Assembly (NCBI GenBank): GCA_945861715.1
Contig: CAMAVK010000001.1
Coordinates: forward strand, 458,908 to 522,907
From: Candidatus Woesearchaeota archaeon
GTDB taxonomy: Archaea > Nanobdellota > Nanobdellia > Woesearchaeales > GW2011-AR9
DNA length: 64,000 nt
Reading direction: 5' to 3'
In this document: positions 15,829 through 51,395 of the stretch, piece by piece
How positions within the stretch are numbered: position 1 is the first letter of the stretch
Layout: every line of letters begins with the position of its first letter
Position numbers and translations under genes: made by a program
Notes under the pieces: model-generated
The model's input: only the letters and a program-made list of their open reading frames with translations
The model's database searches: none
What the model was told of the DNA's origin: nothing

Positions 15829-16080
15829 ATGCCTGCAGTACTTGATGGACTATTGGATAAAAAGACCGCATCATTACTGAAAGTTCTTTTAAAAAATAAA
15901 GACGAAATATACCATCTCCACTCTCTTTCTAGGGCGTCAAAAGTACCCGTCTCCTCTACTTCTAGAATTGTAACTAAACTAATCAAATTAGATCTGATAA
16001 CAACAAGAAAAGTCGGCAATATGGTCCTATTCCAAGCATCAAATTCTGAAAAAGCAAAATTGGTGGGTGATTTGCTATGA
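15829..16080 (+). CDS. Small winged-helix (MarR/ArsR-like) transcriptional regulator
   Basis: 83 aa. Helix-turn-helix region IYHLHSLSRASKVPVSSTSRIVTKLIKLDLITTRK followed by a beta-wing (VGNMVLFQ). Its TGA stop overlaps the start of the giant surface-protein gene (ATGA). Confidence 0.5.
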   Translation: MPAVLDGLLDKKTASLLKVLLKNKDEIYHLHSLSRASKVPVSSTSRIVTKLIKLDLITTRKVGNMVLFQASNSEKAKLVGDLL

Positions 16081-19000
16081 GTCAATCCACTAAGTCTACC
16101 AAAACCGTACTCCGCCTAAGTTTATTCATAATCATCCTCCTCCTCACATCAGCAACCGTACTCGCAGCTACAAAACCTATTGCTGGCTATATTTTCAAAA
16201 CAGACGGAACAACAGTGGCACCAAACGCGAGCGTACGAGTCTACGTAAACCAAGCTTCCGTGAGTGCAGCAAACCCGTGCTACACAAACCCTGCTGTTCT
16301 CTCCGGTGTAGATGGTTCATGGTCTACTAATCTCGCAAATTTGAAGCGAGCAGATAATGGGAATGATTGCTCTGGATTTTGGGCAACAGGGGATGCAATA
16401 TGGGCAAACGCCATTGGCCAAAACGTAACTCCTGAACACGGAAACCTTTCCACTGCAAATACAACCATCGCATCAGGAACCGGACTCCAGTATCTCTCAA
16501 ACGTTAGTCTCCCTGCAGGGCCGGATCGAATCGCACCAGTAATTCGTCTCATCGCCCCACCAAACGCCACCAACAACACCAACGGCTCCATCCTCTTTCA
16601 ATACAATGTAACCGATGACAGTCTCATTAGTAATTGTAGTGTACTATTCAACGGTACAATAAATACGACAAATACCTCTATAACCAGAAACATCACCATG
16701 AACTTCAGCCTCACCAATATTGCTGATGGCCACTATAATTGGTCTGTTGGATGTTATGATAACGTTACAAATTATAACACCAGTATTGAGACATGGTTCC
16801 TAAACGTATCGAAAGTAGGTCATTATAACTTAAGTCTTGTAACCCCGACGTCCAACACCAGCGTTGAACAGAATCAATTTTTTACTTTTACTATGCAAGT
16901 GAAATGTTATGATGGAAGCTGTGGTGATACAAATGCAAGTCTTGACCCTATTATTCTTGGTGAAGATCAAACAATTGTCTCCCAGAACAAATTTCACTCA
17001 CAAGGATTCTTTGAAAAAATATGGTCTTACTTCGCTGAATTCTTTTCAGGGAATCTCATCACCGGGCAAGTAACAGGTGCGCTCGTTCCCATGGTACCAA
17101 CCACACCATTTTACACTAATATGTCAAACCCTATGAACCTAAGTAATGTAAGTTGTCTAGCTAATATGGCTCAAAATAGCGCATGCAACGTAACATGGTA
17201 TGTCAACGCGTCAGGTCCTGTTGGGACCGTAGCAGAGTTCTGGGCATTTACTAACTCTACCATATACACCGCGCTGAACAATGAGACTCCACATTTATTT
17301 ATCAGTATAGTTGAATCAATCCCACCTGCTATTATTAATTACACTCCTCGAGGAGAGACTTTTAATGTCACCCAATTAATAGAAATCAGTCTTAACACCA
17401 CCGACCCCCAAAACATATCTTTTGTAAAAGCAAACATTACATATCCTAATGCAACCGTTGACCTAATTAATCTTACTCGTGTGGGTACTACCGATAAATA
17501 CAACAGCAGTTACACCATCCCGCCAAGAACTGGGTTCTACCTAATCAAATTTTGGGTAAATGATACAGGAAACAACATCAACGGAACAACTCAAACAAAT
17601 TTCACAGGTCAAGATATTGTCCCTCCTAACGTTACCACCCTCCTCCCTGCAATTTCAACAAGCTACAACACATCCCAAATAATTCAAATATCACTTAACG
17701 CAACTGACGTAACAAATATCAGCACAACGTTTGCCACCATCACTTCACCCAACAGCACCAAAACAAACGTCACCCTAAGTCGCCAAGGCACTACATACAA
17801 ATACAATGGAACCTACACTGTTCCTCCCCGCATTGGCACATTCAACATTACCTTCTTTGCAAATGATAGTAAAAATAATATCAACAATAGTGAAGTTTCA
17901 AACTTCACGGTACTCGATGGCGAATATCCTCGCCTAGCAACCATTGTAGAAGCCCCAACTGACCCGGCAACATACGTATATAATCAAACATATTTTTTCA
18001 ACATTACTATCACTGACAATATTGGAATAAACAATGTTATCATGCAATTCAATAACACAAATTACACCGCAGAAATAAAAAATCAAAGCACCATTTTTCA
18101 ATTCAACATCTCAGATCTCGCAGCCGCAACATACAATTATGTCTGGTATGCAAATGACACCAGTGGCTACATCAATTCTACTTCCTCTACCTACACCATC
18201 AGCAAAGCATCATCAACTGTAAATCTAACTTTATATGGAAATGATAGTAACACCAATATCAGTGTAAACACACCAGTTAACCTAAGCGGGGTACGAATCG
18301 CCGGTGATGGACAAATAGAATTACTTCAAAACGGATCCGTTCTCTCACTTGGCAATACAAGTACCTCCTCGAACCAAACCTATACCACGCTAACTTCATA
18401 TAATATCAGCATTCGACACAATTCTACTCAAAATTTCACTGCAAGTCAAGAAGATCATGTCCTCGCAATAAAGGATTATATTTCACCAAACGTCACCCTT
18501 GTAACCGTAAACGCTTCAAGCGTCAATCAAACGCAACATGTCAGAATAAACGCAACGATAATTGACAATCTTCAAATTGATTCCATTAAAACACAAATTT
18601 GGTTCCCCAACGGATCGGTCCAAAATTTCACCATGAATAACATCAGCTCTTCGTTTAATACCACCTATATCACAATTCTCACATCAAACATAGGAAACCA
18701 CACTGCACAAATTCTAGCTAACGATACCTCCGGAAATAGAAATACCACTCAAAACGTAAGCTTTTGGGTGTATGACATAACTCCACCTGCAGTTACTTTA
18801 CTCATACCCGCAAATCAAACTACTCTAGGAAATGGGACTACTATCCAATTGTCATCAACAACGACAGATAATATCGCAATATCGAGTACATATGCAAATA
18901 TTACTTACCCAAATAATTCCATTCAATCTATCCCCCTCACACTTACCACCGCATCAAAATATAATTCATCCTTGCTTCTAGGTCAACAAACAGGAATTTA

Positions 19001-21080
19001 TCTGATGCAAATATTTTCCAATGATTCAAGTAACAACATCAATGCAACAGAACAAGTATTGTTCTATGTGAACGAGACGGACGGTCCTCCAAATGTAACT
19101 CTAGTTGCAGTAAACGTATCAAGCGTTAATCAAACGCAGCATGTCAGAATCAATGCAACTGTCATGGATGCAATAAGTGTAGATACCGTTAAAACGCAAA
19201 TATACTTCCCTAATGGCTCAATCCAAAATTTCACGATGAGTAATGTGAGCTCCTACTATAACACCACCTATATCACAATTCTCACATCAAACATTGGAAA
19301 TCATACCGCGCAAATTATTGCAAACGATACCAATGGAAATAGAAATACCACTCAAAACGTCACCTTTTGGGTATACGACATCACACCACCCAATGTCACA
19401 GCTTTAATCCCGACAAATCAATCCACTGTATTCACCGGAACCAGCATTCAAATCGCAGCGAATGTAACAGACAACACTGCTCTCTCAACAGTATACGCAA
19501 ATATCACCTATCCAAATAGTTCAATCACCTCATTGCCCTTATCGTTAGCAACAGGTGCCAAATACAACTCTACTCTCACCTTGGGTTCATACAATGGAAC
19601 CTACACACTCCTTATCTTTTCCAATGATAGCAGCAATAATATCAACGCCACCGAACAAACACAGTTCTTTGTAAACACCTCAGATAATGCGCCAGTTGTA
19701 ACCTTGCTAAACCCTGCAGACAGCTATACGAATACTACTTCTACCTATCTTGAGATGAACTTTTCATGTTCTGCAACCGATGATTACGCCCTACGCAATA
19801 TCTCATTATACCTAAGCAATCCATCAAACACCAATTTTAGTCAGAATCAAAGTACTCTTCTTAATGGTACAACTAACTCTACTTCATGGCTACTTAATCT
19901 TACCCAAGGCTCCTTCACCTGGAACTGTCAAGCAATTGACAACAGTACTCAACTCGATTGGGCATCAAACCGCAGTATAACCCTATCTGCCCCTTCTTCC
20001 TCAAGCAGCAGTTCAAGCTCCTCCGGTGGTGGTGGTGGAAGTAGTTCAAGTACATCGAGTAGTAGTGGCGGGCCTATACCACAAAAAAGAGTAGATGTAA
20101 ATGCAACCCCGACATGTCTATGGAATGAAAGCATCATCGCAGGAAATTGCATGTACAATGAAAGTAATGTATTGCTAAATGCTTCACCTACTGAGATCCC
20201 AATAAACTCAAACCAAGGAATATTCAATTTAGTGGGAAGAGCATTTGATATAAACATCCATGCCTTTGGTCTAGACCTTAGTCTACTTTACATTGCCTTG
20301 ATGGTATTCCTCTTGGGCTTATTAGTGCTTTTACTGACCAGACGAAAACGACCATACCTTATTATTCAAGCACCAACCATGGCCGCCCCCGGTGACACCT
20401 TTGATGTAAACGTCAAACTAGGTAATGATTATCGGCCAGTTGTATTAAGAATTTGGAGTATTTTCGTTCCTGAGGGAGAAGTTGGTCTGCTAAACATCAA
20501 AAATATTATCGGCAAAGGCCCAACCTATCGTCTCGAAGTAGACCGATCAGAAATAAGGCGTGGCACCATTCCTGTGGCTATACCAGCACAGTTTATGCCG
20601 GGGAAATATCGAATCATCACGTGTGTGCGGTGGGAATACAAGAAGACAAATGAGCCAAAATCCCTTGTAGAAAAAGGAACAACCCAAGAAAAAATAAAAA
20701 TAACTGCTCATCAAAATAAAATAACGGTTACCCAAACTAAGTTACCTATCCCACCTGCGCTTCTAGTATTAGTGGGTAAACGAAGTCGGCTTCCAGAAAA
20801 TATCGCAATCAACTTACAAACCATGCGTGAAAAGCTCGCGCCAACTGCAAACATTGTTGAACTCGCAAGAACTCGTGAAGAAATTGTACTACGTATGCAC
20901 CAAGCAGAGAAAATGCATAACTTGCGTCTCAAAAAGTTAGAAATCGAAGAGGATATGCGACACACCGAAGAAGAAGGAGTACTACAGCTTCAGTTAACGA
21001 GACTAAATAGTACATTAACTAAGAATGCGGCACCCGTGCAACGCTCAACACAAACACCCACAAAAAGGGACAGAAAGTAA
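16077..21080 (+). CDS. Giant (1667 aa) heavily sequon-decorated surface protein: signal peptide, conserved N-terminal module, about 12 beta-sandwich repeats, poly-Ser/Gly stalk, single TM, ~260-aa cytoplasmic tail with a coiled coil
   Basis: Signal peptide LRLSLFIIILLLTSATVLA. N-terminal module homologous to the 13622 protein (ANPCYTNPAVLSGVDGSWSTNLANL...CSGFWATGDAIW...SGTGLQYL). N-x-S/T sequons occur every ~5-10 residues. Stalk SSSSSSSSSGGGGGSSSSTSSSSGG. TM LLYIALMVFLLGLLVLLLTRRKRP. The cytoplasmic tail ends in a K/E/R-rich coiled coil. Confidence 0.7.
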   Translation: MSQSTKSTKTVLRLSLFIIILLLTSATVLAATKPIAGYIFKTDGTTVAPNASVRVYVNQASVSAANPCYTNPAVLSGVDGSWSTNLANLKRADNGNDCSGFWATGDAIWANAIGQNVTPEHGNLSTANTTIASGTGLQYLSNVSLPAGPDRIAPVIRLIAPPNATNNTNGSILFQYNVTDDSLISNCSVLFNGTINTTNTSITRNITMNFSLTNIADGHYNWSVGCYDNVTNYNTSIETWFLNVSKVGHYNLSLVTPTSNTSVEQNQFFTFTMQVKCYDGSCGDTNASLDPIILGEDQTIVSQNKFHSQGFFEKIWSYFAEFFSGNLITGQVTGALVPMVPTTPFYTNMSNPMNLSNVSCLANMAQNSACNVTWYVNASGPVGTVAEFWAFTNSTIYTALNNETPHLFISIVESIPPAIINYTPRGETFNVTQLIEISLNTTDPQNISFVKANITYPNATVDLINLTRVGTTDKYNSSYTIPPRTGFYLIKFWVNDTGNNINGTTQTNFTGQDIVPPNVTTLLPAISTSYNTSQIIQISLNATDVTNISTTFATITSPNSTKTNVTLSRQGTTYKYNGTYTVPPRIGTFNITFFANDSKNNINNSEVSNFTVLDGEYPRLATIVEAPTDPATYVYNQTYFFNITITDNIGINNVIMQFNNTNYTAEIKNQSTIFQFNISDLAAATYNYVWYANDTSGYINSTSSTYTISKASSTVNLTLYGNDSNTNISVNTPVNLSGVRIAGDGQIELLQNGSVLSLGNTSTSSNQTYTTLTSYNISIRHNSTQNFTASQEDHVLAIKDYISPNVTLVTVNASSVNQTQHVRINATIIDNLQIDSIKTQIWFPNGSVQNFTMNNISSSFNTTYITILTSNIGNHTAQILANDTSGNRNTTQNVSFWVYDITPPAVTLLIPANQTTLGNGTTIQLSSTTTDNIAISSTYANITYPNNSIQSIPLTLTTASKYNSSLLLGQQTGIYLMQIFSNDSSNNINATEQVLFYVNETDGPPNVTLVAVNVSSVNQTQHVRINATVMDAISVDTVKTQIYFPNGSIQNFTMSNVSSYYNTTYITILTSNIGNHTAQIIANDTNGNRNTTQNVTFWVYDITPPNVTALIPTNQSTVFTGTSIQIAANVTDNTALSTVYANITYPNSSITSLPLSLATGAKYNSTLTLGSYNGTYTLLIFSNDSSNNINATEQTQFFVNTSDNAPVVTLLNPADSYTNTTSTYLEMNFSCSATDDYALRNISLYLSNPSNTNFSQNQSTLLNGTTNSTSWLLNLTQGSFTWNCQAIDNSTQLDWASNRSITLSAPSSSSSSSSSSGGGGGSSSSTSSSSGGPIPQKRVDVNATPTCLWNESIIAGNCMYNESNVLLNASPTEIPINSNQGIFNLVGRAFDINIHAFGLDLSLLYIALMVFLLGLLVLLLTRRKRPYLIIQAPTMAAPGDTFDVNVKLGNDYRPVVLRIWSIFVPEGEVGLLNIKNIIGKGPTYRLEVDRSEIRRGTIPVAIPAQFMPGKYRIITCVRWEYKKTNEPKSLVEKGTTQEKIKITAHQNKITVTQTKLPIPPALLVLVGKRSRLPENIAINLQTMREKLAPTANIVELARTREEIVLRMHQAEKMHNLRLKKLEIEEDMRHTEEEGVLQLQLTRLNSTLTKNAAPVQRSTQTPTKRDRK
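18485..19690 (+). repeat. Near-identical 603-nt (201-aa) tandem duplication inside the giant surface-protein gene
   Basis: Unit 1 (NVTLVTVNASSVNQTQHVRINATIIDN...ITILTSNIGNHTAQILANDTSGNRNTTQNVSFWVYDITPP...FSNDSSNNINATEQ) is repeated immediately as unit 2 (NVTLVAVNVSSVNQTQHVRINATVMDA...ITILTSNIGNHTAQIIANDTNGNRNTTQNVTFWVYDITPP...FSNDSSNNINATEQ). Nucleotide strings such as caagcgt(c/t)aatcaaacgca(a/g)catgtcagaat(a/c)aa(c/t)gcaac recur at 18519 and 19122. Confidence 0.85.
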
Positions 21081-25860: not shown

Positions 25861-25960
25861 TTCCTTAGCCACAGATTTTCCTTATTATCTGCTCTCAATC
25901 TCTTTATCTACCTCTAATTTAAACTTAAACATAAGTATGAAGAGAAGTAAGAAAAATGAG

Positions 25961-26072
25961 CGGGCCCTGAGGGATTTGAACCCCCGACCTCGTGGTACCT
26001 ATCAATTACTCATTCCTTTCGGATTAGCAATGTTAAGAGCCACGCGCTCTAGCCAGCCTGAGCTAAGAGCCC
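25961..26072 (-). tRNA. tRNA-Lys (anticodon CUU) with a ~37-nt canonical-position intron (after nt 37). CCA is not encoded.
   Basis: Minus-strand read GGGCTCT-TA-GCTC-AGGCTGGCTA-GAGC-G-CGTGG-CTCTTA[intron ACATTGC...GATAGGT]A-CCACG-AGGTC-GGGGG-TTCAAAT-CCCTC-AGGGCCC-G. All four stems pair, U33 and A37 are present, and the T-loop is TTCAAAT. Exons are at about 26034-26072 and 25961-25996. Confidence 0.85.
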
Positions 26073-26169
26073 GTTATTGAGGAAAAAACCGTATCTATAT
26101 TATAAATCTTATCACTTGGGAACATACCAACCACGTTGCTTAACCAACCACAGCTTTTTCAAATCAAAT

Positions 26170-26345
26170 AAGCAGGAATCCCCTGGATTCATCCGGGGGA
26201 GGAATGCGAGTTCCACATTGGGATTCCGCTATATTTGATTTTAGAAAATCCGTATTAGAAAAAGGGCGAAAATCCCCTCCCTTGGGGCGGGGGTATTTTC
26301 CGTAGGAAAGCTCGGAACGGCAGTGACGCTGGCCCCTTTTCAGGA
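26170..26345. ncRNA. GC-rich structured RNA candidate. Identity and strand unassigned; SRP RNA, a reduced RNase P RNA or an H/ACA-like sRNA are possible.
   Basis: An island of ~55-60% GC in a ~35% GC genome, directly beside a tRNA. An 8-bp helix GGAATCCC/GGGATTCC (26176/26220) encloses a GGAA-tgcgag-TTCC hairpin. A C-rich/G-rich hairpin CCCCTCCC-tt-GGGGCGGGG follows. Then comes GGAAAGCTCGGAACGGCAGTGACGCTGGCCCC. Confidence 0.35.
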
Positions 26346-26407
26346 TTTTCTTTAAATTTAAACCCTAATACCAAAATAATTTTAAACCCATTAGAACTTT
26401 AATCATC

Positions 26408-26965
26408 ATGACCCAAAAACAATACATCACAGCAAACGACTTTCTTCTCGATTCCTATAGACTCGCAAAACAAATTTTAGACTCAAATTTCAAGCCAAAC
26501 TTCTTAGTTGGGTTCTGGCGTGGTGGAACGCCAGTAGGTATAGCTGTACAAGAATACTTACTAACCAAAGGGGTTCCAACCGATCACATCGCCTTAAGAA
26601 CAAAGGCCTATGAAGCAATCGGCAAGATGCAGATTGAAATAAACGTTGATGGTCTCGATTATTTAATTAAACATGCAAACCAAAATGATTCGATCCTCCT
26701 AGTTGACGACGTCTTTGATACCGGTCTCTCTATGCAAGCGGTAATTGAAAAATATCAACAAGAAGCTCGAAAAAACACAGCACATGACATACGAATTGCA
26801 ACCGTCTATTTCAAACCAGAAAATAACAAAACCAAAAGACAACCCGATTTCTTCATCCACCAAACCAGAGAATGGCTCGTTTTCCCACATGAACTAAAAG
26901 ACCTAACTCCTGAAGAAATAAAAGCAGGCAAAGGTCAAGAAATATACGATTTATTGTATAAATAG
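26408..26965 (+). CDS. Type I phosphoribosyltransferase (purine/hypoxanthine-guanine PRTase family)
   Basis: PRPP-binding motif SILLVDDVFDTGLSM. Size (~185 aa) fits archaeal purine PRTases. Confidence 0.6.
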   Translation: MTQKQYITANDFLLDSYRLAKQILDSNFKPNFLVGFWRGGTPVGIAVQEYLLTKGVPTDHIALRTKAYEAIGKMQIEINVDGLDYLIKHANQNDSILLVDDVFDTGLSMQAVIEKYQQEARKNTAHDIRIATVYFKPENNKTKRQPDFFIHQTREWLVFPHELKDLTPEEIKAGKGQEIYDLLYK

Positions 26966-26969
26966 GAAG

Positions 26970-28145
26970 TTAAATAGACTTCAAATAATGTTCCAAGAAC
27001 GTCTCTGTAAACCGTTGCCGATGCGGCTCAAACACTTCAGCTCCAGACTTATTCTCCCCCCTCATACAAAAATGCCGTCGTTCAAAAAAAGTTTCAAGTG
27101 CAGTATGAGCATCCTGAACCACATCGTAAAGATTAATCAAAGTACTTATTTCTAAATGTAAGATGTTCTCCAATGAAGACAGAGTACGAACACCAAATAA
27201 ATTTCTTGGGTCATCTTGCGTCAGTTTTTTAGCTATTTTTATCTTTTGAGTCCTAATCAAATACTCTGTTTGCAACGCATGTAAACGCACAAACGCAGCA
27301 TCATAAAGTGGCGTGCCTCTATTGCTAATTAAAGAGATAGTCCTCTCTTGAAAATCTAATTTTTCTTGCAGCTCCAATAGCTTACGTTTATCAAACATAT
27401 CTTCTTCTATTAATTCAAACAACCTTGCCGTTCCAAAATCAATCACTTTTCGAGTTCCCTTAAAGTTAGACCGAAACTCATCCATACAATGACCATGATT
27501 ATAATTAATACCGAGCCCCGCAAGATCCGCATACGTTCTTGCACATTCTTCAACAATAGAACCCATCGCAGCACAATAGTGATCAAGCCGATCGGATTTT
27601 GAGTCTAGGGTTGGCAAAGTTTGTTTCGAGAGTAACTCTTCTGCATAAAATTGAGAACCAAGATGAAGTACCTTGGGCCCTATTTTACCACTTACAATCT
27701 CAAGCACTTTTTTCTCCATGGATTGATTATATTTGTCATAAGGTTTTACAACAAACTGTCCGCACGATGCACTAACGACAAGCGGAATCCTCCCACTACC
27801 TCGAACCAAACGAGCTGCATGTCCACGCCGCTTCTCAAACGCCGTTTGTTCTCGCATAAAATCAACCTGACAAAATCCCACACCCATCTCGACAAGAAGT
27901 AACTCGGCTTCACGAAAATACGCATCACTTACTTGAACATAATTTGGAACATAAACCTTATCCTGCATATCCTGATACAACTCATCTTCTGTTCTTCTAC
28001 ATTTGAACAATACTCCTTGCGGTGGTCCACGTTGATTCCCATTTGTAAGCAAAGTGTGAGTCTCCCGTGTTCGACCATATTGTTCCACATAAGTCAAACC
28101 TTGAACACCTACCATTGATCGAATCACAAGAGGTTCTGCAGTCAT
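26970..28145 (-). CDS. Divergent protein-kinase-like (ePK-fold) protein, paralogue A
   Basis: beta3-Lys-like QFVVKPYD. alphaC-like VLEIVSG. Catalytic-loop-like CMDEFRSNF (D...N spaced as in HRDLKPxN). DFG motif VIDFGTARLF (compare DFGLAR) 16 residues after the catalytic Asp. A unique ~140-aa N-terminal domain. Overlaps the next gene by 4 nt. Confidence 0.5.
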   Translation of the reverse strand: MTAEPLVIRSMVGVQGLTYVEQYGRTRETHTLLTNGNQRGPPQGVLFKCRRTEDELYQDMQDKVYVPNYVQVSDAYFREAELLLVEMGVGFCQVDFMREQTAFEKRRGHAARLVRGSGRIPLVVSASCGQFVVKPYDKYNQSMEKKVLEIVSGKIGPKVLHLGSQFYAEELLSKQTLPTLDSKSDRLDHYCAAMGSIVEECARTYADLAGLGINYNHGHCMDEFRSNFKGTRKVIDFGTARLFELIEEDMFDKRKLLELQEKLDFQERTISLISNRGTPLYDAAFVRLHALQTEYLIRTQKIKIAKKLTQDDPRNLFGVRTLSSLENILHLEISTLINLYDVVQDAHTALETFFERRHFCMRGENKSGAEVFEPHRQRFTETFLEHYLKSI

Positions 28146-29362
28146 AATCTTTGCTCCAACAGATATTCCTCTAAAAACCGTACTATGAATTTCTGTTCAA
28201 ATGGCCTAAACAAATCATACCCTGATACCTTATCAAATGACCAACCCGATTGACGACATTCAAAAAATGAACGCATTGCTCCTTTAGCACTATCGAGACA
28301 AAAATAAGAGTTCACTAACATATGAGGTGAAACTCGTTCAAAATATTCCACCGGGAATTGTTCTTTGAGTTCAAACAACGCATGACCTCCTTTATCAGTA
28401 AGTATTCCTAACAAAGAGATACATTCTCTTCGTTCATTCCAAGAAGAAAATGCGGGTTTAACAATCTCAATTTCTAACTTTTTATGAGCTTCACTTTCAT
28501 CCATCGGGATAGCCTTGCGAAGTGAAAAAGCTAAATTTAACTTTTCCTCACTCTCACGCAAAACATCAGAAGAAAAGTATGATTCATCATAAAATAATCG
28601 AGAAGTCCCAAAATCAGTAATTTTTCGGATACCAGCGAAGTTAGACCGAAATTCATCCATGCATTTTTGGTGATTATAATTTATTTCCTTCTTTGCCAGT
28701 TGTGCATAAATCACTGCTGCTTCAAGTACAATCATTTCCATCTCAGGGCAATCATGTTGTAAACCATTTGTTTGTTCAAATAGTGTTGGCATGGTGTTGA
28801 AGTCAATAAACTCCTCAGCATACATATCTTTACTAAATGCTCTGATTTTTGCACCAATGTTCCCACTAACTGTCTCCAATACTTTTCTTTCAATAACATG
28901 ATCGTAGTCATCATACTTTTTTACCACAAATTGCTCATCTGGTGTTGAGACGAGAAGTGGTATTCGTGTACTTCCTCTGACATACTTCCCTTTATTCCTC
29001 ACAAAATCAACTTCGGCTTTGACAATTCCCATGTCATGAAGGAAAAGTTCAACATTTCGAAAGTATAAATCATCAAGTGCTCGAAAGTGATACCTCTCAA
29101 TATCCTCCAATTCAGAATAATACTCATCGTTTGATCTTCTGCAATTAAAATGAACGCCTTCCTTAAAGTTCCTTTCTTGTTTTTCGCGCTCAAGAAATAA
29201 TCCAATCAGTCCGTTCCAGCTGGTTTTAGATTCTCCTTGCTGCCGTTTGGCATATGTTTGTGGAGTATATCCATCTTGCTCAGTTTGAGTTAACAACGCT
29301 AAATATTTTCTGTCCTCTGGTTCAACTGACGTAATAAGAAAAGGTTGTTGTAATAAGACCAT
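28142..29362 (-). CDS. Divergent protein-kinase-like (ePK-fold) protein, paralogue B
   Basis: Same architecture as paralogue A: QFVVKKYD, VLETVSG, INYNHQKCMDEFRSNFAGIRKITDFGTSRLF. Roughly 30% identical to A across the full length. Confidence 0.5.
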   Translation of the reverse strand: MVLLQQPFLITSVEPEDRKYLALLTQTEQDGYTPQTYAKRQQGESKTSWNGLIGLFLEREKQERNFKEGVHFNCRRSNDEYYSELEDIERYHFRALDDLYFRNVELFLHDMGIVKAEVDFVRNKGKYVRGSTRIPLLVSTPDEQFVVKKYDDYDHVIERKVLETVSGNIGAKIRAFSKDMYAEEFIDFNTMPTLFEQTNGLQHDCPEMEMIVLEAAVIYAQLAKKEINYNHQKCMDEFRSNFAGIRKITDFGTSRLFYDESYFSSDVLRESEEKLNLAFSLRKAIPMDESEAHKKLEIEIVKPAFSSWNERRECISLLGILTDKGGHALFELKEQFPVEYFERVSPHMLVNSYFCLDSAKGAMRSFFECRQSGWSFDKVSGYDLFRPFEQKFIVRFLEEYLLEQRL

Positions 29363-29436
29363 AATATCCTCATTTCTCCCTTATTATAAAAAGATTACCA
29401 CTAATAAAGAACAACTTATTCTCCCTTAACCTTTAA

Positions 29437-30705
29437 TCAAACTTTACTTCCAACAAAAATATTGTGTTTATCTCGAGCAATCTTCACTTTAATTGGCATA
29501 TCACGGCGAAACTCAACATCCGGAATAGATATTGTTCGACCCTGTGCAACCGCAATAACTCCACCCGGAAAACGATCCACTGATTTAACAATCGCATTCA
29601 CCACATCTGCTTTCTTAAATGGTTTAGGAAGTTTCTTCGTTTCACGGATTTTAAAATCATCCTTCGACCAACGCAGTTTAATCTTGTACTTTGTCTCCCA
29701 TCCTTCAATGAGCTTGTAAAATTTGTCCCATGGAATTTCTTGTGCAGGATTACGTCCCGTTTTATATCGTAAGAAATTTTGAATACCTAATTTAGGCTGT
29801 ACCTCAAGACCAGCAATCCATGCAATAACCTTTTCCATCTCAGCTTCATTGTATTTTTTTACCATCACCGGAGCTACAATCACATTCAACCGAGCAGAGG
29901 CATATGAAATAACCTCGAGCACGTGCTTAATATTATAATTAGTAATACCTGCCATCTTCTTTGCAATGTCAGGGTCAATTGCATCCAGCGACAAATTAAG
30001 TTGCAATTTAGTACACAACGCCAACCTATCAATCATAGCTTTCGAAAGCATCGTACCATTTGTGTCAATAGAAATGGTATGTATCATCGGATGCGCTTGC
30101 AAATCGGTTATCAATCCCTCAATATCTCCATACAGAAATGGTTCGCCCTGTACCCCAATGTGTATCTCAACTGGTTCACCAACAAACTCCAGTAAGGTAA
30201 ATAATTCCGAGACCATATAATCTTTCTCAACGACAAAATCATTTTTACGCGATGACAAACCCTCTGAAATAGAGCAGTACACACAATCCAAATTGCATCC
30301 ATTCATTGGTTTTATCTCAATTATACTCGATTCGCGATACACAATACCAAACGCCACATTACCAAAGAGTGGGATTCCAGAGTTACGATGAAGATACGTT
30401 GCTTTATTCCCTGTTAAACTTGTTTTCAAGGAATCCAACGCCTTCGAAAACATATGTGAAAATTTTATTTCGGCCTTTTCTTGATCAATTTTAGTGAATT
30501 CAATGGTATGGGCATCAATAAGCTTCCAAGGAGAAATTCTATCCATCTCAGAACACAAAATTTCCGTAGTGTACAACTTAAGCAAGGTAATCTTGAGTAC
30601 ATCTCCTATTTGTTGAAATGAAAGAGTTTCAAATGTGAGTATTGCCATGTATTTTGTTTTGTAAATTTTAAATATTGGATCAAGCACTATTAACGGGCCA
30701 GCCAA
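29437..30705 (-). CDS. Radical SAM enzyme with a C-terminal TRAM-like domain. Not MiaB/RimO type; the ~120-aa N-terminal domain is unique.
   Basis: CxxxCxxC cluster CNLDCVYCS. GGEP-type motif GVQGEPFLYG. SIDTNGTML. C-terminal VVNAIVKSVDRFPGGVIAVAQGRTISIPDVEFRRDMPIKVKIARDKHNIFVGSKV resembles a TRAM beta-barrel. Confidence 0.55.
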   Translation of the reverse strand: MAGPLIVLDPIFKIYKTKYMAILTFETLSFQQIGDVLKITLLKLYTTEILCSEMDRISPWKLIDAHTIEFTKIDQEKAEIKFSHMFSKALDSLKTSLTGNKATYLHRNSGIPLFGNVAFGIVYRESSIIEIKPMNGCNLDCVYCSISEGLSSRKNDFVVEKDYMVSELFTLLEFVGEPVEIHIGVQGEPFLYGDIEGLITDLQAHPMIHTISIDTNGTMLSKAMIDRLALCTKLQLNLSLDAIDPDIAKKMAGITNYNIKHVLEVISYASARLNVIVAPVMVKKYNEAEMEKVIAWIAGLEVQPKLGIQNFLRYKTGRNPAQEIPWDKFYKLIEGWETKYKIKLRWSKDDFKIRETKKLPKPFKKADVVNAIVKSVDRFPGGVIAVAQGRTISIPDVEFRRDMPIKVKIARDKHNIFVGSKV

Positions 30706-30826
30706 ATTTACCTTACATTCAAAAGAATTTTCATTTTTTAATAAAACTATTCCTCTATTTCACAAAAAATAATATCATCCTCTCATTCCGTAATCGTGTC
30801 TAATAATGTTTTTTAAAATTCTCTTT

Positions 30827-31555
30827 TTATTTCCTACCCCGGACTTCAGGTAAGCAAGTATATGCAATTTTACGTATTTGCTCAATTGTCTTTCGCTCAA
30901 CCCCACACGTCCGTTCTGCAGCAATTTGAAAATAATCCTGCACCTTAGCCATATTTTTTTTAATTTTCCCTGGTTTTCCGGAACGAGCACCTTCAACAGC
31001 GAGCCCATAATACACACGACCAAGTTCCATTGGAATGACTGAGTTCAAAGGAAAAAGTTGAATTCCTTCTCGTAAAACATCTTCTACTCTACCCACTCGA
31101 ATTTCGCATGGATTTTGAAAATACCTGGCAACAAAATTATACAATGGTTCATATACAGATATAGGCAAATTCTGCTCAGCTCCCAATTCAAATTCTAACA
31201 TATCTCCGGGTGGAATATCTAATGTTGCTCTAGTTTCCAACTTCAATAGAGCCTTAATACGTAGCTCTTGTTTTTGTTTTTCTTCAATAGCAAGCAGAGA
31301 TAATTGAACGGGGACCCGAATTACTTCTTTAACAACCGCATCACTAATCTCACCTACCTCGGCATACGCTAGTAATGTGTAGGCATCCTTCATTTCCTTA
31401 TGAAGACGATATGTATTAACCTGATCAAATGGAATTCCTTTTAAGACCTGAAGTACTTCTTCTAGCGCTGATATGTTCCTTTGTGTGCTCATATCCTTTT
31501 CAAACGGGAATCTTTTAAAAACTTGTTCCTCAAAAAGGACAAATATATGATTCAT
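30827..31555 (-). CDS. Hypothetical protein (242 aa), first gene of the rSAM/kinase-like operon
   Basis: Same strand as the three downstream genes, about 120 nt upstream of them. No assignable motif. Confidence 0.3.
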   Translation of the reverse strand: MNHIFVLFEEQVFKRFPFEKDMSTQRNISALEEVLQVLKGIPFDQVNTYRLHKEMKDAYTLLAYAEVGEISDAVVKEVIRVPVQLSLLAIEEKQKQELRIKALLKLETRATLDIPPGDMLEFELGAEQNLPISVYEPLYNFVARYFQNPCEIRVGRVEDVLREGIQLFPLNSVIPMELGRVYYGLAVEGARSGKPGKIKKNMAKVQDYFQIAAERTCGVERKTIEQIRKIAYTCLPEVRGRK

Positions 31556-31660: not shown

Positions 31661-33538
31661 ATGGCTCTTACTAGTTCAGATATGTACACAATTCTTGGTT
31701 TAGAGCCTGGTTGTACAATAAAAGATGTACAACAAAGAAGAAGAGTACTTCAACGAAAATATCACCCTGATCAAAATCCAAACGACCCGGAAGCTGAAGA
31801 GCAAGCAAAAAAAGTAAACAACGCTGCAAGCGAACTTGAAAGAATTCTCACCCAAAGTACTACAGTACCCCCCGCACCAGAGCATAGTACACCAAGACCA
31901 TCTATGGGTAGCATTGCTCAAAGATTAGCAGCAAAAGTAAAAGCGGAAAAATCACCGTCAACTGACCATTCCTCGTTTAAAAAATACTCTCCCCCCCCCG
32001 TCAACGTTACTCGGGACATACCCCATCCTTCGCCTGCATCAAGCGAAAAAAGTATGTTTCAACAAAGACTCAACGCACCTCCCAGCATACGCGAAAATGC
32101 AGGCACAAATGCGGGAGGAAGAATAATTCTGGGTAACATCAATGAAAGTTATCGAGAGGTCTATTTTAGTCTTGAAGATAATTTTGCAAAAGCAGCTAAT
32201 CAGTATTTATTCAATATGCAAGGGACATCCGCATCAACAGTGTATGGAGAGTTACACCATCTCGATTCAGATCTTCTTATCTGCAGCTCTATTTTAGATG
32301 AGGTCTACTTAAAGAAATTTTCAAATAGCTCCCTAGAACGACGACAAAAAATAGTACTTCCATTAGTAACCCCAAAAACTGATCAATTAAAACAATTAAG
32401 TCTTGAGGATCTCATCATCGCCTTTGGAACTACTATCGCGCTTATACCTCATCCCAACAGAAATCCAATCTCCTCTCAATATGAGCAATCATTTTGGACA
32501 ATCTATAATCACATCACAACGAATATGAGAAGTGCTGAAATAGAAAATACACCCTATCTCCATCAACTAACAAATCTTGCGGGGACCATTGTTAGGTTAA
32601 GTACGGACCCCAAAATTCGAAAAGAGCTCACCTCCTTTTTACCTGATCAGCATTCGCTATTATCCCAAACACTTAATGCTATACTCCCTGTGAGTACAAA
32701 TATCTATACATGTATAACACTATTTTCTAGCTTATCAAAAGTAGCCACTAACCATACATATCTTCATTGGAGCGAAAAAAACGTAAAAGTAACCAAAACC
32801 GCCGTGGCGTTCATTAAATCCCAAGAATTAACTCTTAACCAACATACCCCTGATAACGTGCCAACACAATCGATATCACCTGATCAAAAGTGGCAAGTCA
32901 TCTGCGAAGCTACTGAATTTGTAAATGATTATGACCTGGGATTATCCAAAAACTACTACAGTACCTGGGAAGCTACTATAACCAAACTCTCCTCCTTATA
33001 TTTTTCTCCGGATTTGGAAATTCTGGTTCCACTCATTTTAACTCTCAGCGATGCAAGCCATAGGTATGAACAAGTACGATACCCTGCAAATCTCGAAGAG
33101 GCAATCACAGCGTTAACCATCTTATTACCCGTATACCAACACAAAACGGGTATAATTGAGGAAGCTTCCAAAGGTCTGTATGAATTAAAAAGAGACGCAC
33201 GTGGCAAAAAAAGCCCCCATTATACTGTCACCGCGCGTGTTGCCCGAGCAGTTGAATATATCTCCTATTGTATTGAACAATGCAATCAATATCCACACTT
33301 AGAAAATAATCTTCCTCAACTAACGGAAATTTTAGGTGGATTTGCAAAGAGTCGGTATTACCATGAACCACACCAATCTCAAAAAGTACGAGAAAAAATA
33401 GCTCCCCCAACTGACCACACCACTCAGTTAATCTATGGACGTTTAGAACAAGTTCAAACCAAACCACACGATAAAAGAACACTTTCAACTGATGATATTC
33501 ATTATATCATTGATACCTTTGTTGCAAAATTCAAATAG
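31661..33538 (+). CDS. J-domain (DnaJ-like) protein with a large unique C-terminal region (625 aa)
   Basis: N-terminal J domain DMYTILGLEPGCTIKDVQQRRRVLQRKYHPDQNPNDPEAEEQAKKVNNAASEL with the HPD tripeptide. No zinc-finger or DnaJ C-terminal domains. Confidence 0.55.
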   Translation: MALTSSDMYTILGLEPGCTIKDVQQRRRVLQRKYHPDQNPNDPEAEEQAKKVNNAASELERILTQSTTVPPAPEHSTPRPSMGSIAQRLAAKVKAEKSPSTDHSSFKKYSPPPVNVTRDIPHPSPASSEKSMFQQRLNAPPSIRENAGTNAGGRIILGNINESYREVYFSLEDNFAKAANQYLFNMQGTSASTVYGELHHLDSDLLICSSILDEVYLKKFSNSSLERRQKIVLPLVTPKTDQLKQLSLEDLIIAFGTTIALIPHPNRNPISSQYEQSFWTIYNHITTNMRSAEIENTPYLHQLTNLAGTIVRLSTDPKIRKELTSFLPDQHSLLSQTLNAILPVSTNIYTCITLFSSLSKVATNHTYLHWSEKNVKVTKTAVAFIKSQELTLNQHTPDNVPTQSISPDQKWQVICEATEFVNDYDLGLSKNYYSTWEATITKLSSLYFSPDLEILVPLILTLSDASHRYEQVRYPANLEEAITALTILLPVYQHKTGIIEEASKGLYELKRDARGKKSPHYTVTARVARAVEYISYCIEQCNQYPHLENNLPQLTEILGGFAKSRYYHEPHQSQKVREKIAPPTDHTTQLIYGRLEQVQTKPHDKRTLSTDDIHYIIDTFVAKFK

Positions 33539-50903: not shown

Positions 50904-51395
50904 ATGAAATATCTTGCATATTTTCAACCTAGTCCGGAACTTGCAACTCTCATCCAGACTCAGGACTGCATCATAATTCCTTCCTCTGGTTTACACACAA
51001 CACTTTGCACCTTTCACATGGAACAAAACCAAGAGTCCATCCTGATCTCAAACCTTTCGAAAATCCCCCTCAGCGCATTTGAAGTTGAAACTCAAACCAT
51101 CGCCCTTTTTGACAAAGAATCCCTCGTTCTGAAACTAACTCGTCCACCTGAATTATATCAATTACATCAAGACATCACAGAAATAGTACGTACCCACGCA
51201 ACGCCAGAATTCAACCAAAGGTATCAAACATACTTTGGACCAAAATATAACCCTCACATTACTATCTCTAAATCCTACACAGACTTCAACACGTCCACCC
51301 CTCTATTAAGCGGGCACACCTTTCGGGTAGAAAATTTTTATCTAGCAAAAAAAGTAGAAGAAAAGTGGATTGAAATTTCTAACTTTACCCCATAA
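50904..51395 (+). CDS. 2H phosphoesterase superfamily protein (LigT / 2'-5' RNA ligase-like)
   Basis: Two H-x-T/S-x motifs in the correct spacing: GLHTTLCTF and NPHITISKS. Confidence 0.6.
   Translation: MKYLAYFQPSPELATLIQTQDCIIIPSSGLHTTLCTFHMEQNQESILISNLSKIPLSAFEVETQTIALFDKESLVLKLTRPPELYQLHQDITEIVRTHATPEFNQRYQTYFGPKYNPHITISKSYTDFNTSTPLLSGHTFRVENFYLAKKVEEKWIEISNFTP

Follow-up and report, generated by a model that had tools for sequence, protein, structure and literature searches.

The adjacent genes A and B encode members of a small, previously unannotated family with a protein-kinase-like fold, and the finding at this locus is a new family, atypical among kinase-fold proteins, rather than an established RNA-modification module. 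The family is rare: an exhaustive profile search of 1.84 billion cluster representatives recovered 61 at E <= 0.001, and a word-indexed protein search with B returned B itself and one relative. Judging by taxon labels from a few loci, it is apparently restricted to DPANN archaea. The two genes lie downstream of a radical SAM gene and an orphan open reading frame (ORF) in the window, by which we mean the whole 64,000-nucleotide stretch of Woesearchaeota DNA that was analyzed.

Locus layout and transcription

Features of the locus are listed below from upstream to downstream with respect to A and B; residue positions are those of the encoded proteins.

30827-31555, minus strand: orphan ORF, 242 aa; the public gene call is 221 aa from ATG 31492
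29437-30705, minus strand: radical SAM ORF; the start is probably ATG 30648, giving 29437-30648 and 403 aa
30274-30297, minus strand: CxxxCxxC motif of the radical SAM protein (C118, C122, C125), its sole invariant cysteines in a 40-sequence alignment (A3)
29440-29616, minus strand: five-stranded, S1/TRAM-like C-terminal barrel of the radical SAM protein, residues ~345-403, pI 10.4
29381-29392, minus strand: TATA-like box TTTTTATAATAA, unmapped, beginning 30 nt upstream of the B ATG
28142-29362, minus strand: kinase-like B, 406 aa, first gene of the coupled pair
28577-29029, minus strand: conserved kinase core of B, residues ~112-262, from 57-member column counts and model secondary structure
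26970-28145, minus strand: kinase-like A, 391 aa, family HMM match 4e-78; its ATG lies in the B stop (ATGA)
26408-26965, plus strand: phosphoribosyltransferase gene, convergent with A (Pfam Pribosyltran, 8.8e-12)
~26150-26360, either strand: G+C-rich, strongly folding intergenic stretch (MFE z-scores)
25960-26072, minus strand: tRNA-Lys(CUU) with a 37-nt intron (Rfam tRNA, 50 bits; ARAGORN intron mode)

A preliminary description of this DNA, made from the letters and a list of ORFs, had assigned the four co-directional minus-strand genes to one operon. The ORF coordinates agree with the four genes and their strand, and the ATGA junction with a 4-nt overlap of B and A; the operon of four does not hold, since coupling is evident for B-A alone. 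The 242-aa ORF and the radical SAM gene are 178 nt apart, and the radical SAM gene and B 74 nt apart, with a TATA-like sequence pattern at the genome-typical position in both gaps. The best TATA-like match starts at -33 to -24 in 20 of the 42 window ORFs, and TTTTTATA, identical to the box ahead of B, is found at -30 of two further ORFs (50904 and 56103). From its sequence pattern, the box at 29381-29392 probably serves B and A as a promoter of their own, although transcription of the radical SAM gene may still read through into them.

We consider it likely that the region comprises three separate transcription units that are neighbors by chance of gene order. These would be the orphan ORF (221-242 aa), a DPANN-wide radical SAM enzyme, and the tandem genes B and A, in that order and coupled in translation. 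Where a genome is compact and its genes are leaderless, each with its own promoter, adjacency should not be taken to mean an operon. Pfam and NCBIfam searches detected no family for the 242-aa ORF, which is not conserved beside radical SAM orthologues, and phmmer searches of all fetched loci with the window neighbors (this ORF, a DnaJ-domain protein, the phosphoribosyltransferase, and others) gave 0 matches.

The tRNA-Lys(CUU) gene, previously placed immediately downstream, is 897 nt away from A, beyond the convergent phosphoribosyltransferase gene, and has a TATA-like sequence of its own; it is not part of the A/B unit. It was missed by ARAGORN in a default run and found in intron mode. As for the structured RNA suggested nearby, the strong folding stood (MFE z-scores of -4.05 on the minus and -4.28 on the plus strand for ~26150-26360), and an Rfam family did not, as the search of this stretch gave nothing better than E ~1. 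A C/D-box-like AUGAUGA...CUGA match within it (E 1.1) was treated as chance.

The kinase-like family

With an identity of 38% (E 2e-69), A and B are paralogues, as first proposed, although they are moderately rather than "highly" divergent. The motif strings read from them (FVVK, CMDEFRSNF, and DFGT[S/A]RLF) are present in both. A unique N-terminal domain of ~140 aa had also been described; what is specific to the closest relatives is shorter, ~65-70 residues modeled with low confidence. In B numbering, the model and alignment place helices common to the whole family at 78-110 and the start of the N-lobe at about residue 112-116. The pair would represent a lineage-specific duplication, and A and B may work as a heterodimer.

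The family has no sequence match in Pfam, NCBIfam, or the PDB, and it could therefore receive a definition and a name of its own. A and B have no Pfam match at E <= 1, no Pfam family is matched by more than one of 57 members, a PDB sequence search with B alone returned nothing, and family profiles reached PDB kinases at sub-threshold E-values of 0.03-0.5. Consistent with the initial placement outside RIO, Bud32, KdoK, and APH, there was no Pfam or NCBIfam match to RIO, Bud32, Kdo, or APH families. Scans for further loci yielded 4 contig loci from a 13-sequence alignment, 5 loci from metagenomes, and 0 relatives on viral contigs, and PADLOC gave no match for A, B, or their neighbors. Members are 290-445 aa long and mostly acidic (median pI 5.7; pI >8 in 7 of 57), with a net charge of -14 for B.

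The kinase-like fold proposed for the paralogues is confirmed by two methods. As modeled, the family has a bilobal kinase fold, with a five-stranded N-lobe that includes alphaC, a hinge, and a helical C-lobe, and it carries the features by which PKL membership was judged, namely a beta3 Lys/alphaC Glu pair and a metal-binding DFG Asp. An hhalign comparison with PKA (probability 10%) pairs K148 with K72 and E158 with E91; its alignment is sensible in the N-lobe and at DFG and mis-aligned in the catalytic loop, and it was used for the Lys/Glu register alone. Landmarks of the B core are a beta1-beta2 loop G-x4-G-S-x-R-x-P, K148, E158, the hinge E183-E184, D250-F-G, and the loop Y229-x-H231-x-K233-x-x-D236-E237. 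Beyond the core, residues 265-405 of B are predicted to form an all-helical C-terminal domain of ~140 residues. Conservation is given below as columns of the 57-member alignment (B numbering), whose mean column identity is 16%.

R133: 57/57
P135: 57/57
K148 (beta3 Lys): 56/57
E158 (alphaC Glu): 56/57
E183 (hinge Glu): 56/57
H231: 46/57; Asp in 4
H233: 47/57; Lys in 4
D236: 48/57
E237: 52/57; Asp in 4
N241: 9/57
D250 (DFG Asp): 57/57
G252: 56/57

The family consensus for the catalytic loop is Y-x-H-x-[H/K]-W-L-D-E, and the canonical [HY]-R-D-x4-N loop is absent. The Gly loop is replaced by the beta1-beta2 motif given above, with Arg133 and Pro135 invariant. The D-x4-N geometry that had been read into the catalytic loop did not survive, given the scarcity of Asn241 and the too few residues between it and the DFG Asp in the strand register of the model (beta6 227-228, beta7 238-240, beta8 246-248, DFG Asp 250); it was probably mis-registered. 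In the model, 25-26 residues separate the DFG Asp from the point where alphaE ends (~residue 224), like PKA. In profile alignments with LIMK1 and MSK1, Y229 falls on the HRD H/Y and H231 on the catalytic Asp, while the Asn is matched by D236 or E237. His231, not Asp236, is thereby predicted to align with the catalytic Asp, in a register that combines secondary-structure spacing with alignments none of which is significant by itself (E 0.03-0.5), for H231 as for the choice between D236 and E237. None of the 57 members matches Pkinase (PF00069) at E <= 0.1; GxGxxG and APE are both lacking, and the post-DFG region is helical.

Among known kinases, RIO proteins (Rio2 1tqi, Rio1 1zp9) and Bud32/PRPK (4ww5) resemble the family in several respects: a compact bilobal fold that lacks both an activation segment and APE, helices at the N-terminus that pack against the N-lobe, a beta3 Lys, an alphaC Glu, and a metal-binding Asp (D-F-G as in Bud32), and occurrence in archaea, sometimes beside translation genes (in the family, the ribosomal protein/RpoD cluster at locus L007). 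However, superpositions give family members just 11-16% identity, the loop Y-x-H-x-H-W-L-D-E and the Arg/Pro motif stand in place of H-x-D-x4-N and the glycine-rich loops, and the large C-terminal domain is an addition. No member (0 of 57) matches Pfam RIO1 (PF01163) or Kdo, and neither the RIO nucleotide loop nor the H-x-D-x4-N / I-D-x-x-Q pair was found. Nearly all archaea have RIO and Bud32, whereas the family is rare.

The group of APH, ChoK/EthK, MTR kinase, and YtaA/CotS has a Brenner motif (HxDxxxxN) that the family lacks, and in the aminoglycoside/choline kinase group the metal loop is ID-x-[DE], in contrast to the DFG-like loop of the family. Across Pfam APH, Choline_kinase, and EcKL, the 57 members gave a single match, to Choline_kinase at E 0.07. 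ArkI (7vnx), the archaeal tRNA U47 2'-kinase, ranked 47 in the fold comparison, and sequence searches with A, B, and the 57 members returned no ArkI-related family. ArkI has ~216 aa, a basic tRNA-binding surface, an HGQ catalytic loop, a DFE metal loop, and a C-terminal YKR motif (PMC9095486); the family differs in being longer, mostly acidic, and in keeping DFG, and A and B fall outside the ArkI family by its defining features.

By the mechanism we propose, A and B would bind ATP-Mg as RIO/Bud32-type atypical kinases do, Asp250 and the Asp236/Glu237 pair would hold metal, and His231 (at the HRD Asp position) and His/Lys233 (at the catalytic-loop Lys position) would help to transfer or hydrolyze the gamma-phosphate. 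The proteins would then act as stand-alone phosphotransferases or ATPases, for which RNA is a less likely substrate than a protein or a small molecule. If catalytically active, the family would be a distinct branch of the protein-kinase-like superfamily confined to genome-reduced DPANN archaea, with His at the expected catalytic Asp and an Arg/Pro-containing loop replacing the glycine loop. It would offer a case for how extensively the active site of a kinase can be remodeled, and for which signaling or maturation steps minimal, host-dependent cells retain.

The radical SAM enzyme and gene neighborhoods

The radical SAM protein consists of an N-terminal beta-rich domain (residues 1-113), a radical SAM core with the CxxxCxxC motif in a partial TIM barrel, as in the superfamily, and a C-terminal S1/TRAM-like OB barrel that superposes on the RlmCD TRAM domain and on S1 domains. 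Homologues are 403-405 aa long, which fits the 403-aa start, and the public gene call likewise gives 403 aa. The earlier reading of a TRAM barrel without the MiaB-type Cys triad is supported as far as a TRAM/S1-like barrel goes, and second-cluster cysteines are absent; unlike MiaB/RimO/MtaB, the protein also has no UPF0004 domain. It scores 67 bits against an NCBIfam cut-off of 284 for MoaA and 33 bits against 180 for viperin (viperin_w_prok), and no counterpart to the 113-residue N-terminal domain was identified. PADLOC pVip matched the core at 39.5 bits, a generic-core-level similarity. A defense reading of viperin plus kinase was set aside on account of this generic match and the empty PADLOC result for A, B, and their neighbors.

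The radical SAM gene is widely conserved in DPANN archaea, across Woesearchaeota and Nanoarchaeota, with at least 821 close homologues; a literature search returned nothing useful on COG2100 or an archaeal radical SAM/TRAM enzyme. The product would be a DPANN-wide housekeeping enzyme with a single [4Fe-4S] motif, acting probably on RNA or another polyanion. Uncharacterized and present throughout Woesearchaeota and Nanoarchaeota, it is a reasonable target for RNA-modification studies by itself.

Co-occurrence of the radical SAM and kinase-like genes in other archaeal genomes had been put forward as a check on their association, and the adjacency is conserved in neither direction. Profile searches found no window-type radical SAM gene near family members at L001, L007, L009, L011, L012/L014, L013, and L015-L018, nor did called genes and Pfam entries at L019-L022; this leaves ~10 distinct loci with family members and without such a gene. 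Conversely, no kinase-like gene was found near radical SAM orthologues at three loci (L004-L006).

The contexts of family members are mostly housekeeping, including the ribosomal protein/RpoD cluster, ProRS, a methionine aminopeptidase-type M24 protein, and RadA. HAD hydrolases adjoin two members, a 54-aa RHH_1 gene ends 1 nt ahead of the member at L021, regulators recur nearby (TrmB twice, HTH_10, RHH), and PIN and MazEF genes are present in some compared loci. No metabolic gene recurs in the neighborhoods examined. In the L012/L014 lineage, an unrelated radical SAM gene lies directly upstream of the family member, so some looser link between the family and radical SAM enzymes may exist.

Alternative readings

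The preliminary description took the region to be an RNA-modification or RNA-phosphorylation module, a view prompted by the tRNA and the structured RNA nearby. On such a reading, the radical SAM/TRAM enzyme and both kinase-like proteins would act together on tRNA or another RNA, for example in ArkI-like ribose phosphorylation. Gene direction and adjacency, the basic S1/TRAM-like barrel, and the different radical SAM gene upstream of a family member in one other lineage all fit such a module, yet we regard it as very improbable. It is not supported because the neighborhood is not conserved, the outcome that the description itself had named as refuting it. The gap in abundance (at least 821 close homologues vs. 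61 cluster representatives), the genome-typical TATA-like box of B inside the 74-nt gap, the remote and separately equipped tRNA, and the acidity of the family and of B likewise argue against it. By analogy with ArkI, the DPANN-specific branch with its His loop might phosphorylate a non-protein substrate such as a tRNA or rRNA ribose hydroxyl, the pair having been recruited beside an RNA-binding radical SAM enzyme for two-step RNA modification, a prospect to which we give very little credence. Three separate units, with A and B acting on their own, is the reading we prefer.

Several other functions can be weighed for such a stand-alone pair. That of aminoglycoside/choline-kinase-type small-molecule kinases, with the C-terminal helical domain as substrate pocket, is unlikely: the helical half at 265-405 recalls that group, the proteins are acidic, and HAD hydrolases adjoin two members, but the Brenner motif is absent, the one Pfam match is weak at E 0.07, and no metabolic gene recurs. 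We find scarcely credible that these are toxin-like kinases of toxin-antitoxin-type or mobile modules with a HipA-like logic. The single RHH neighbor at L021 that prompted a toxin-antitoxin reading, the PIN and MazEF genes, the recurring regulators, and a patchy distribution in variable contexts point that way; against them stand the mostly housekeeping contexts, the empty PADLOC and viral contig searches, and the lack of any conserved small partner gene, and the reading was rejected as unsupported.

A His for the catalytic Asp, together with the lost Gly loop, could also mean pseudokinase scaffolds or a kinase fold used for other chemistry (AMPylation as in SelO). His in 46 of 57 members, the absence of GxGxxG, an Asn of D-x4-N that is not conserved, and an all-helical post-DFG region with no activation segment or APE would suit this reading, which we nonetheless hold to be improbable. 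In many true pseudokinases, one or more of the beta3 Lys, alphaC Glu, and metal-binding residues is gone; here Lys148, Glu158, and Asp250, with Asp236/Glu237, are almost invariant despite the low mean column identity, as is typical of active enzymes that depend on a nucleotide and a metal. Moreover, catalysis by ArkI tolerates a non-Asp residue at the HRD position (PMC9095486).

A tandem pair from a rare kinase-fold family

The preliminary description of this region had combined four co-directional genes, two of them encoding the kinase-like paralogues A and B, with a nearby tRNA and structured RNA into a module acting on RNA. The features concerned are as follows (window positions).

30827–31555, minus strand: orphan open reading frame, 242 aa; 221 aa from 31492 in the public gene call
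29437–30705, minus strand: radical SAM gene; start probably the ATG at 30648, giving 403 aa
28142–29362, minus strand: B, 406 aa
26970–28145, minus strand: A, 391 aa
26408–26965, plus strand (convergent with A): phosphoribosyltransferase gene, between A and the tRNA
~26150–26360, both strands fold: G+C-rich stretch, between the tRNA and the phosphoribosyltransferase gene
25960–26072, minus strand: tRNA-Lys(CUU), interrupted by a 37-nt intron (detected by Rfam and by intron-mode ARAGORN)

The four minus-strand reading frames are present as described, as are the ATGA overlap between the B and A genes and the strings FVVK, CMDEFRSNF and DFGT[S/A]RLF, all of which are found in both proteins. A and B are 38% identical across 354 residues (E 2e-69). 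We prefer the 403-aa start for the radical SAM gene because the public gene call and the lengths of homologues (403–405 aa) agree on it.

Neither A nor B has a meaningful match among Pfam and NCBIfam models at E ≤ 1, and a sequence search of the PDB with B returned no match. A word-indexed protein search with B recovered only B itself and a single 36%-identical protein. With these two and A as the seed of a profile, an exhaustive search of 1.84 billion cluster representatives yielded 61 proteins at E ≤ 0.001, of which 23 reach E ≤ 1e-30. Family members are mostly about 290–380 aa long and align with B from residue ~70–100 on. Scattered Pfam matches look like chance, since among the 57 aligned members no two hit the same Pfam family. 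The few labelled loci are assigned to Nanoarchaeota, Woesearchaeota or simply “archaeon”, and two carry an automated “Methanosarcinales” label; no relatives were found in a scan of viral contigs. The window host is itself a genome-reduced DPANN archaeon; TFIIB and an intron-containing tRNA are encoded in the window, whose genes also occur on a metagenomic contig of 796,844 bp.

The claim of a kinase-like fold stands. The AlphaFold2 model of B, built from the 57-sequence alignment, has a pLDDT of 87 and a pTM of 0.86 and is weak only at residues 1–70, and an independent Foldseek search gave 358 matches at E ≤ 0.001, with kinase-domain proteins in all 50 of those listed; a non-kinase fold, named beforehand as grounds for refutation, was not indicated. 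A and B, a tandem duplicate in the window, belong to a DPANN family of atypical proteins with a kinase fold that is rare and has no annotation. The “unique” N-terminal domain of ~140 residues ascribed to the pair survives in part: an extension of 65–70 residues, modeled with low confidence, is confined to the closest relatives, but the two helices at 78–110 are common to the whole family and the remainder consists of N-lobe strands up to Lys148. Residues 24–36 of B (window ~29255–29293, minus strand) carry the motif L-T-[YQ]-[TV]-E-x-x-G-x-[TP]-[PR], which has equivalents in A and in two of the closest relatives, P0125 and P0127; this motif, shared by the long-form members, might serve in regulation or autophosphorylation.

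A rebuilt catalytic loop

Conservation was assessed as column counts across the 57 aligned members, with residues numbered as in B.

Near-invariant residues of the kinase-like family (residue; count; likely role).
Gly130; 51/57; beta1–beta2 loop
Arg133; 57/57; beta1–beta2 loop
Pro135; 57/57; beta1–beta2 loop
Lys148; 56/57; beta3 Lys
Tyr150; 55/57; after beta3 Lys
Glu158; 56/57; alphaC Glu
Glu183; 56/57; hinge
Tyr229; 49/57; catalytic loop
His231; 46/57, Asp in 4; catalytic loop
His233; 47/57, Lys in 4 including B; catalytic loop
Asp236; 48/57; catalytic loop
Glu237; 52/57, Asp in 4; catalytic loop
Asp250; 57/57; DFG
Gly252; 56/57; DFG

In the model of B, beta6 (227–228) is followed by a helical turn (234–237), beta7 (238–240), beta8 (246–248) and then Asp250. 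The DFG Asp follows the end of alphaE (~residue 224) by 25–26 residues, the spacing seen in PKA, whose sequence has alphaE ending at 158/159 and the DFG Asp at 184. The beta7–beta8–DFG register is exact with PKA 172/180/184, whereas beta6–beta7 is longer by one residue in B. From this strand spacing we infer a mapping onto the kinase catalytic loop: Tyr229 would correspond to the H/Y of HRD and His231 to the catalytic Asp, while His/Lys233 would take the place of the catalytic-loop Lys and Asp236/Glu237 together that of the metal-binding Asn. The same register comes out of sub-threshold profile alignments with LIMK1 (E 0.03) and with MSK1 (E 0.46), which disagree with each other only on whether Asp236 or Glu237 is the partner of the Asn. 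The register proposed earlier, based on a D-x4-N motif, is probably wrong: its Asn (Asn241) is Asn in only 9 of the 57 members, and the 9 residues from it to the DFG Asp are too few for a beta7–beta8 hairpin.

Elsewhere in the domain, G-x4-G-S-x-R-x-P stands in place of the glycine-rich loop, and the post-DFG part of B (260–405) is helical, without an activation segment or APE motif. In sum, the residues that bind ATP and Mg in kinases are retained, and the phosphotransfer loop has been rebuilt in a His-containing form. ArkI, which has HGQ and no Asp at the HRD position, is nevertheless an active kinase-fold kinase (PMC9095486), a precedent indicating that a kinase fold without the HRD Asp can still be an active kinase.

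The radical SAM gene and the proposed RNA module

The radical SAM protein, with a C-terminal barrel resembling S1 and TRAM domains and no MiaB-type N-terminal Cys triad, was described essentially correctly. It matches Pfam Radical_SAM (2e-22). Among NCBIfam models MoaA comes first, with 67 bits where the cut-off is 284; viperin reaches 33 where it is 180. Only Cys118, Cys122 and Cys125 are invariant, so that there is no second cluster and the protein is neither a MiaB/RimO-type methylthiotransferase nor a SPASM/twitch enzyme. It has at least 821 homologues at E ≤ 0.001, the best 120 being 59–67% identical, and the closest are labeled, e.g., Candidatus Woesearchaeota and Nanoarchaeota; judged by these sequences, the gene belongs to the conserved core of these archaea. 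With a pI of 8.7 overall and 10.4 in its C-terminal barrel, the protein is basic. It likely acts on RNA, although this is not certain, as the TRAM domain of RimO binds a protein. Members of the kinase-like family have a median pI of 5.7 and exceed pI 8 in only 7 of 57 cases, and B has a net charge of −14; this acidity is a weak argument against direct RNA binding.

The reading of these genes as an operon forming an RNA module had been made to depend on conservation of the neighborhood, and it is not borne out. At three loci carrying orthologues of the radical SAM gene (L004–L006) the flanking genes differ from those in the window, and the kinase-family HMM had no match in these flanks. The window-type radical SAM gene was absent from all loci of kinase-like family members examined (L001, L007, L009, L011–L022); a profile search with its 40-sequence alignment covered L001, L007, L009, L011, L012/L014, L013 and L015–L018, and L019–L022, which carry three of the closest relatives (P0125, P0126 and P0127), were assessed via called genes and Pfam entries. 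Neighbors of family members vary, and include a ribosomal protein/RpoD cluster, ProRS, an M24 peptidase, HAD hydrolases, a ZIP transporter and RadA. The 242-aa reading frame and other window neighbors had no homologues at any comparison locus. The sole echo of the arrangement comes from one other lineage, in which the gene next upstream of a family member, in the same orientation, encodes an unrelated 337-aa radical SAM protein (L012 4766–5779, L014 2495–3508).

That 337-aa protein is unusual in its C-x5-C-x2-C spacing and matches B12-radical-SAM models only weakly. Genes for small transcription regulators also recur beside family members: RHH_1 abutting (L021 3055–3219), TrmB twice, and HTH_10 (further regulator coordinates: L019 4707–5462, L007 8135–8863, L011 5066–5701). 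Around the radical SAM orthologues, a Methyltransf_30 protein (MnmC-like, PF05430) of ~220 aa is encoded ~5 kb or less away at L004, L005 and L006, Gins51 at two of these three loci, and MutS near the gene at L006, likewise in the window. This partial synteny may hint at the real partners of the radical SAM gene.

Transcription signals and flanking RNA features

Among the 42 window reading frames of at least 150 aa, the best TATA-like match begins −33 to −24 of the start codon in 20, compared to a uniform expectation of ~8, which suggests from sequence that genes are mostly leaderless and individually promoted. B has TTTTTATA at −30 of its ATG (29362), with an identical box at the reading frames at 50904 and 56103. 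Promoter-like boxes also precede the radical SAM ATG (30648) and the 221-aa start (31492); the intergenic gaps of 74 and 178 nt each contain one. A has no TATA-like box upstream, and a single unit is, on these signals, evident for B–A only.

The tRNA and structured RNA had been placed immediately downstream of the pair; in a transcriptional sense, neither is. The tRNA-Lys(CUU), missed by ARAGORN at default settings, is 897 nt past the end of A, on the other side of the convergent phosphoribosyltransferase gene, and Rfam and ARAGORN detected no further tRNAs in the 64-kb window. The G+C-rich stretch does fold far better than shuffled sequence (z −4.05 on the minus strand, −4.28 on the plus strand) but matches no Rfam family, and is possibly an unrecognized small RNA. 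On its minus strand, a TATA-like sequence lies ahead at ~26350–26363 and a T-run at ~26253–26262 follows the first hairpin domain. A C/D-box sRNA-like arrangement (AUGAUGA...CUGA; 26338–26409, minus strand; weak Rfam match, E 1.1) runs into the start of the phosphoribosyltransferase gene; it is probably a chance match.

Plus-strand GC skew stays negative across 1–64000, ranging from about −0.04 to −0.35 over 2-kb intervals, and does not track the direction of the genes. AT skew is positive for the most part, and the pattern suggests a single replichore with marked strand asymmetry. Two plus-strand genes encode large lineage-specific proteins: one of 625 aa (31661–33538), whose sole domain is an N-terminal DnaJ, and one of 1667 aa (16077–21080), for which the public gene call records no family.
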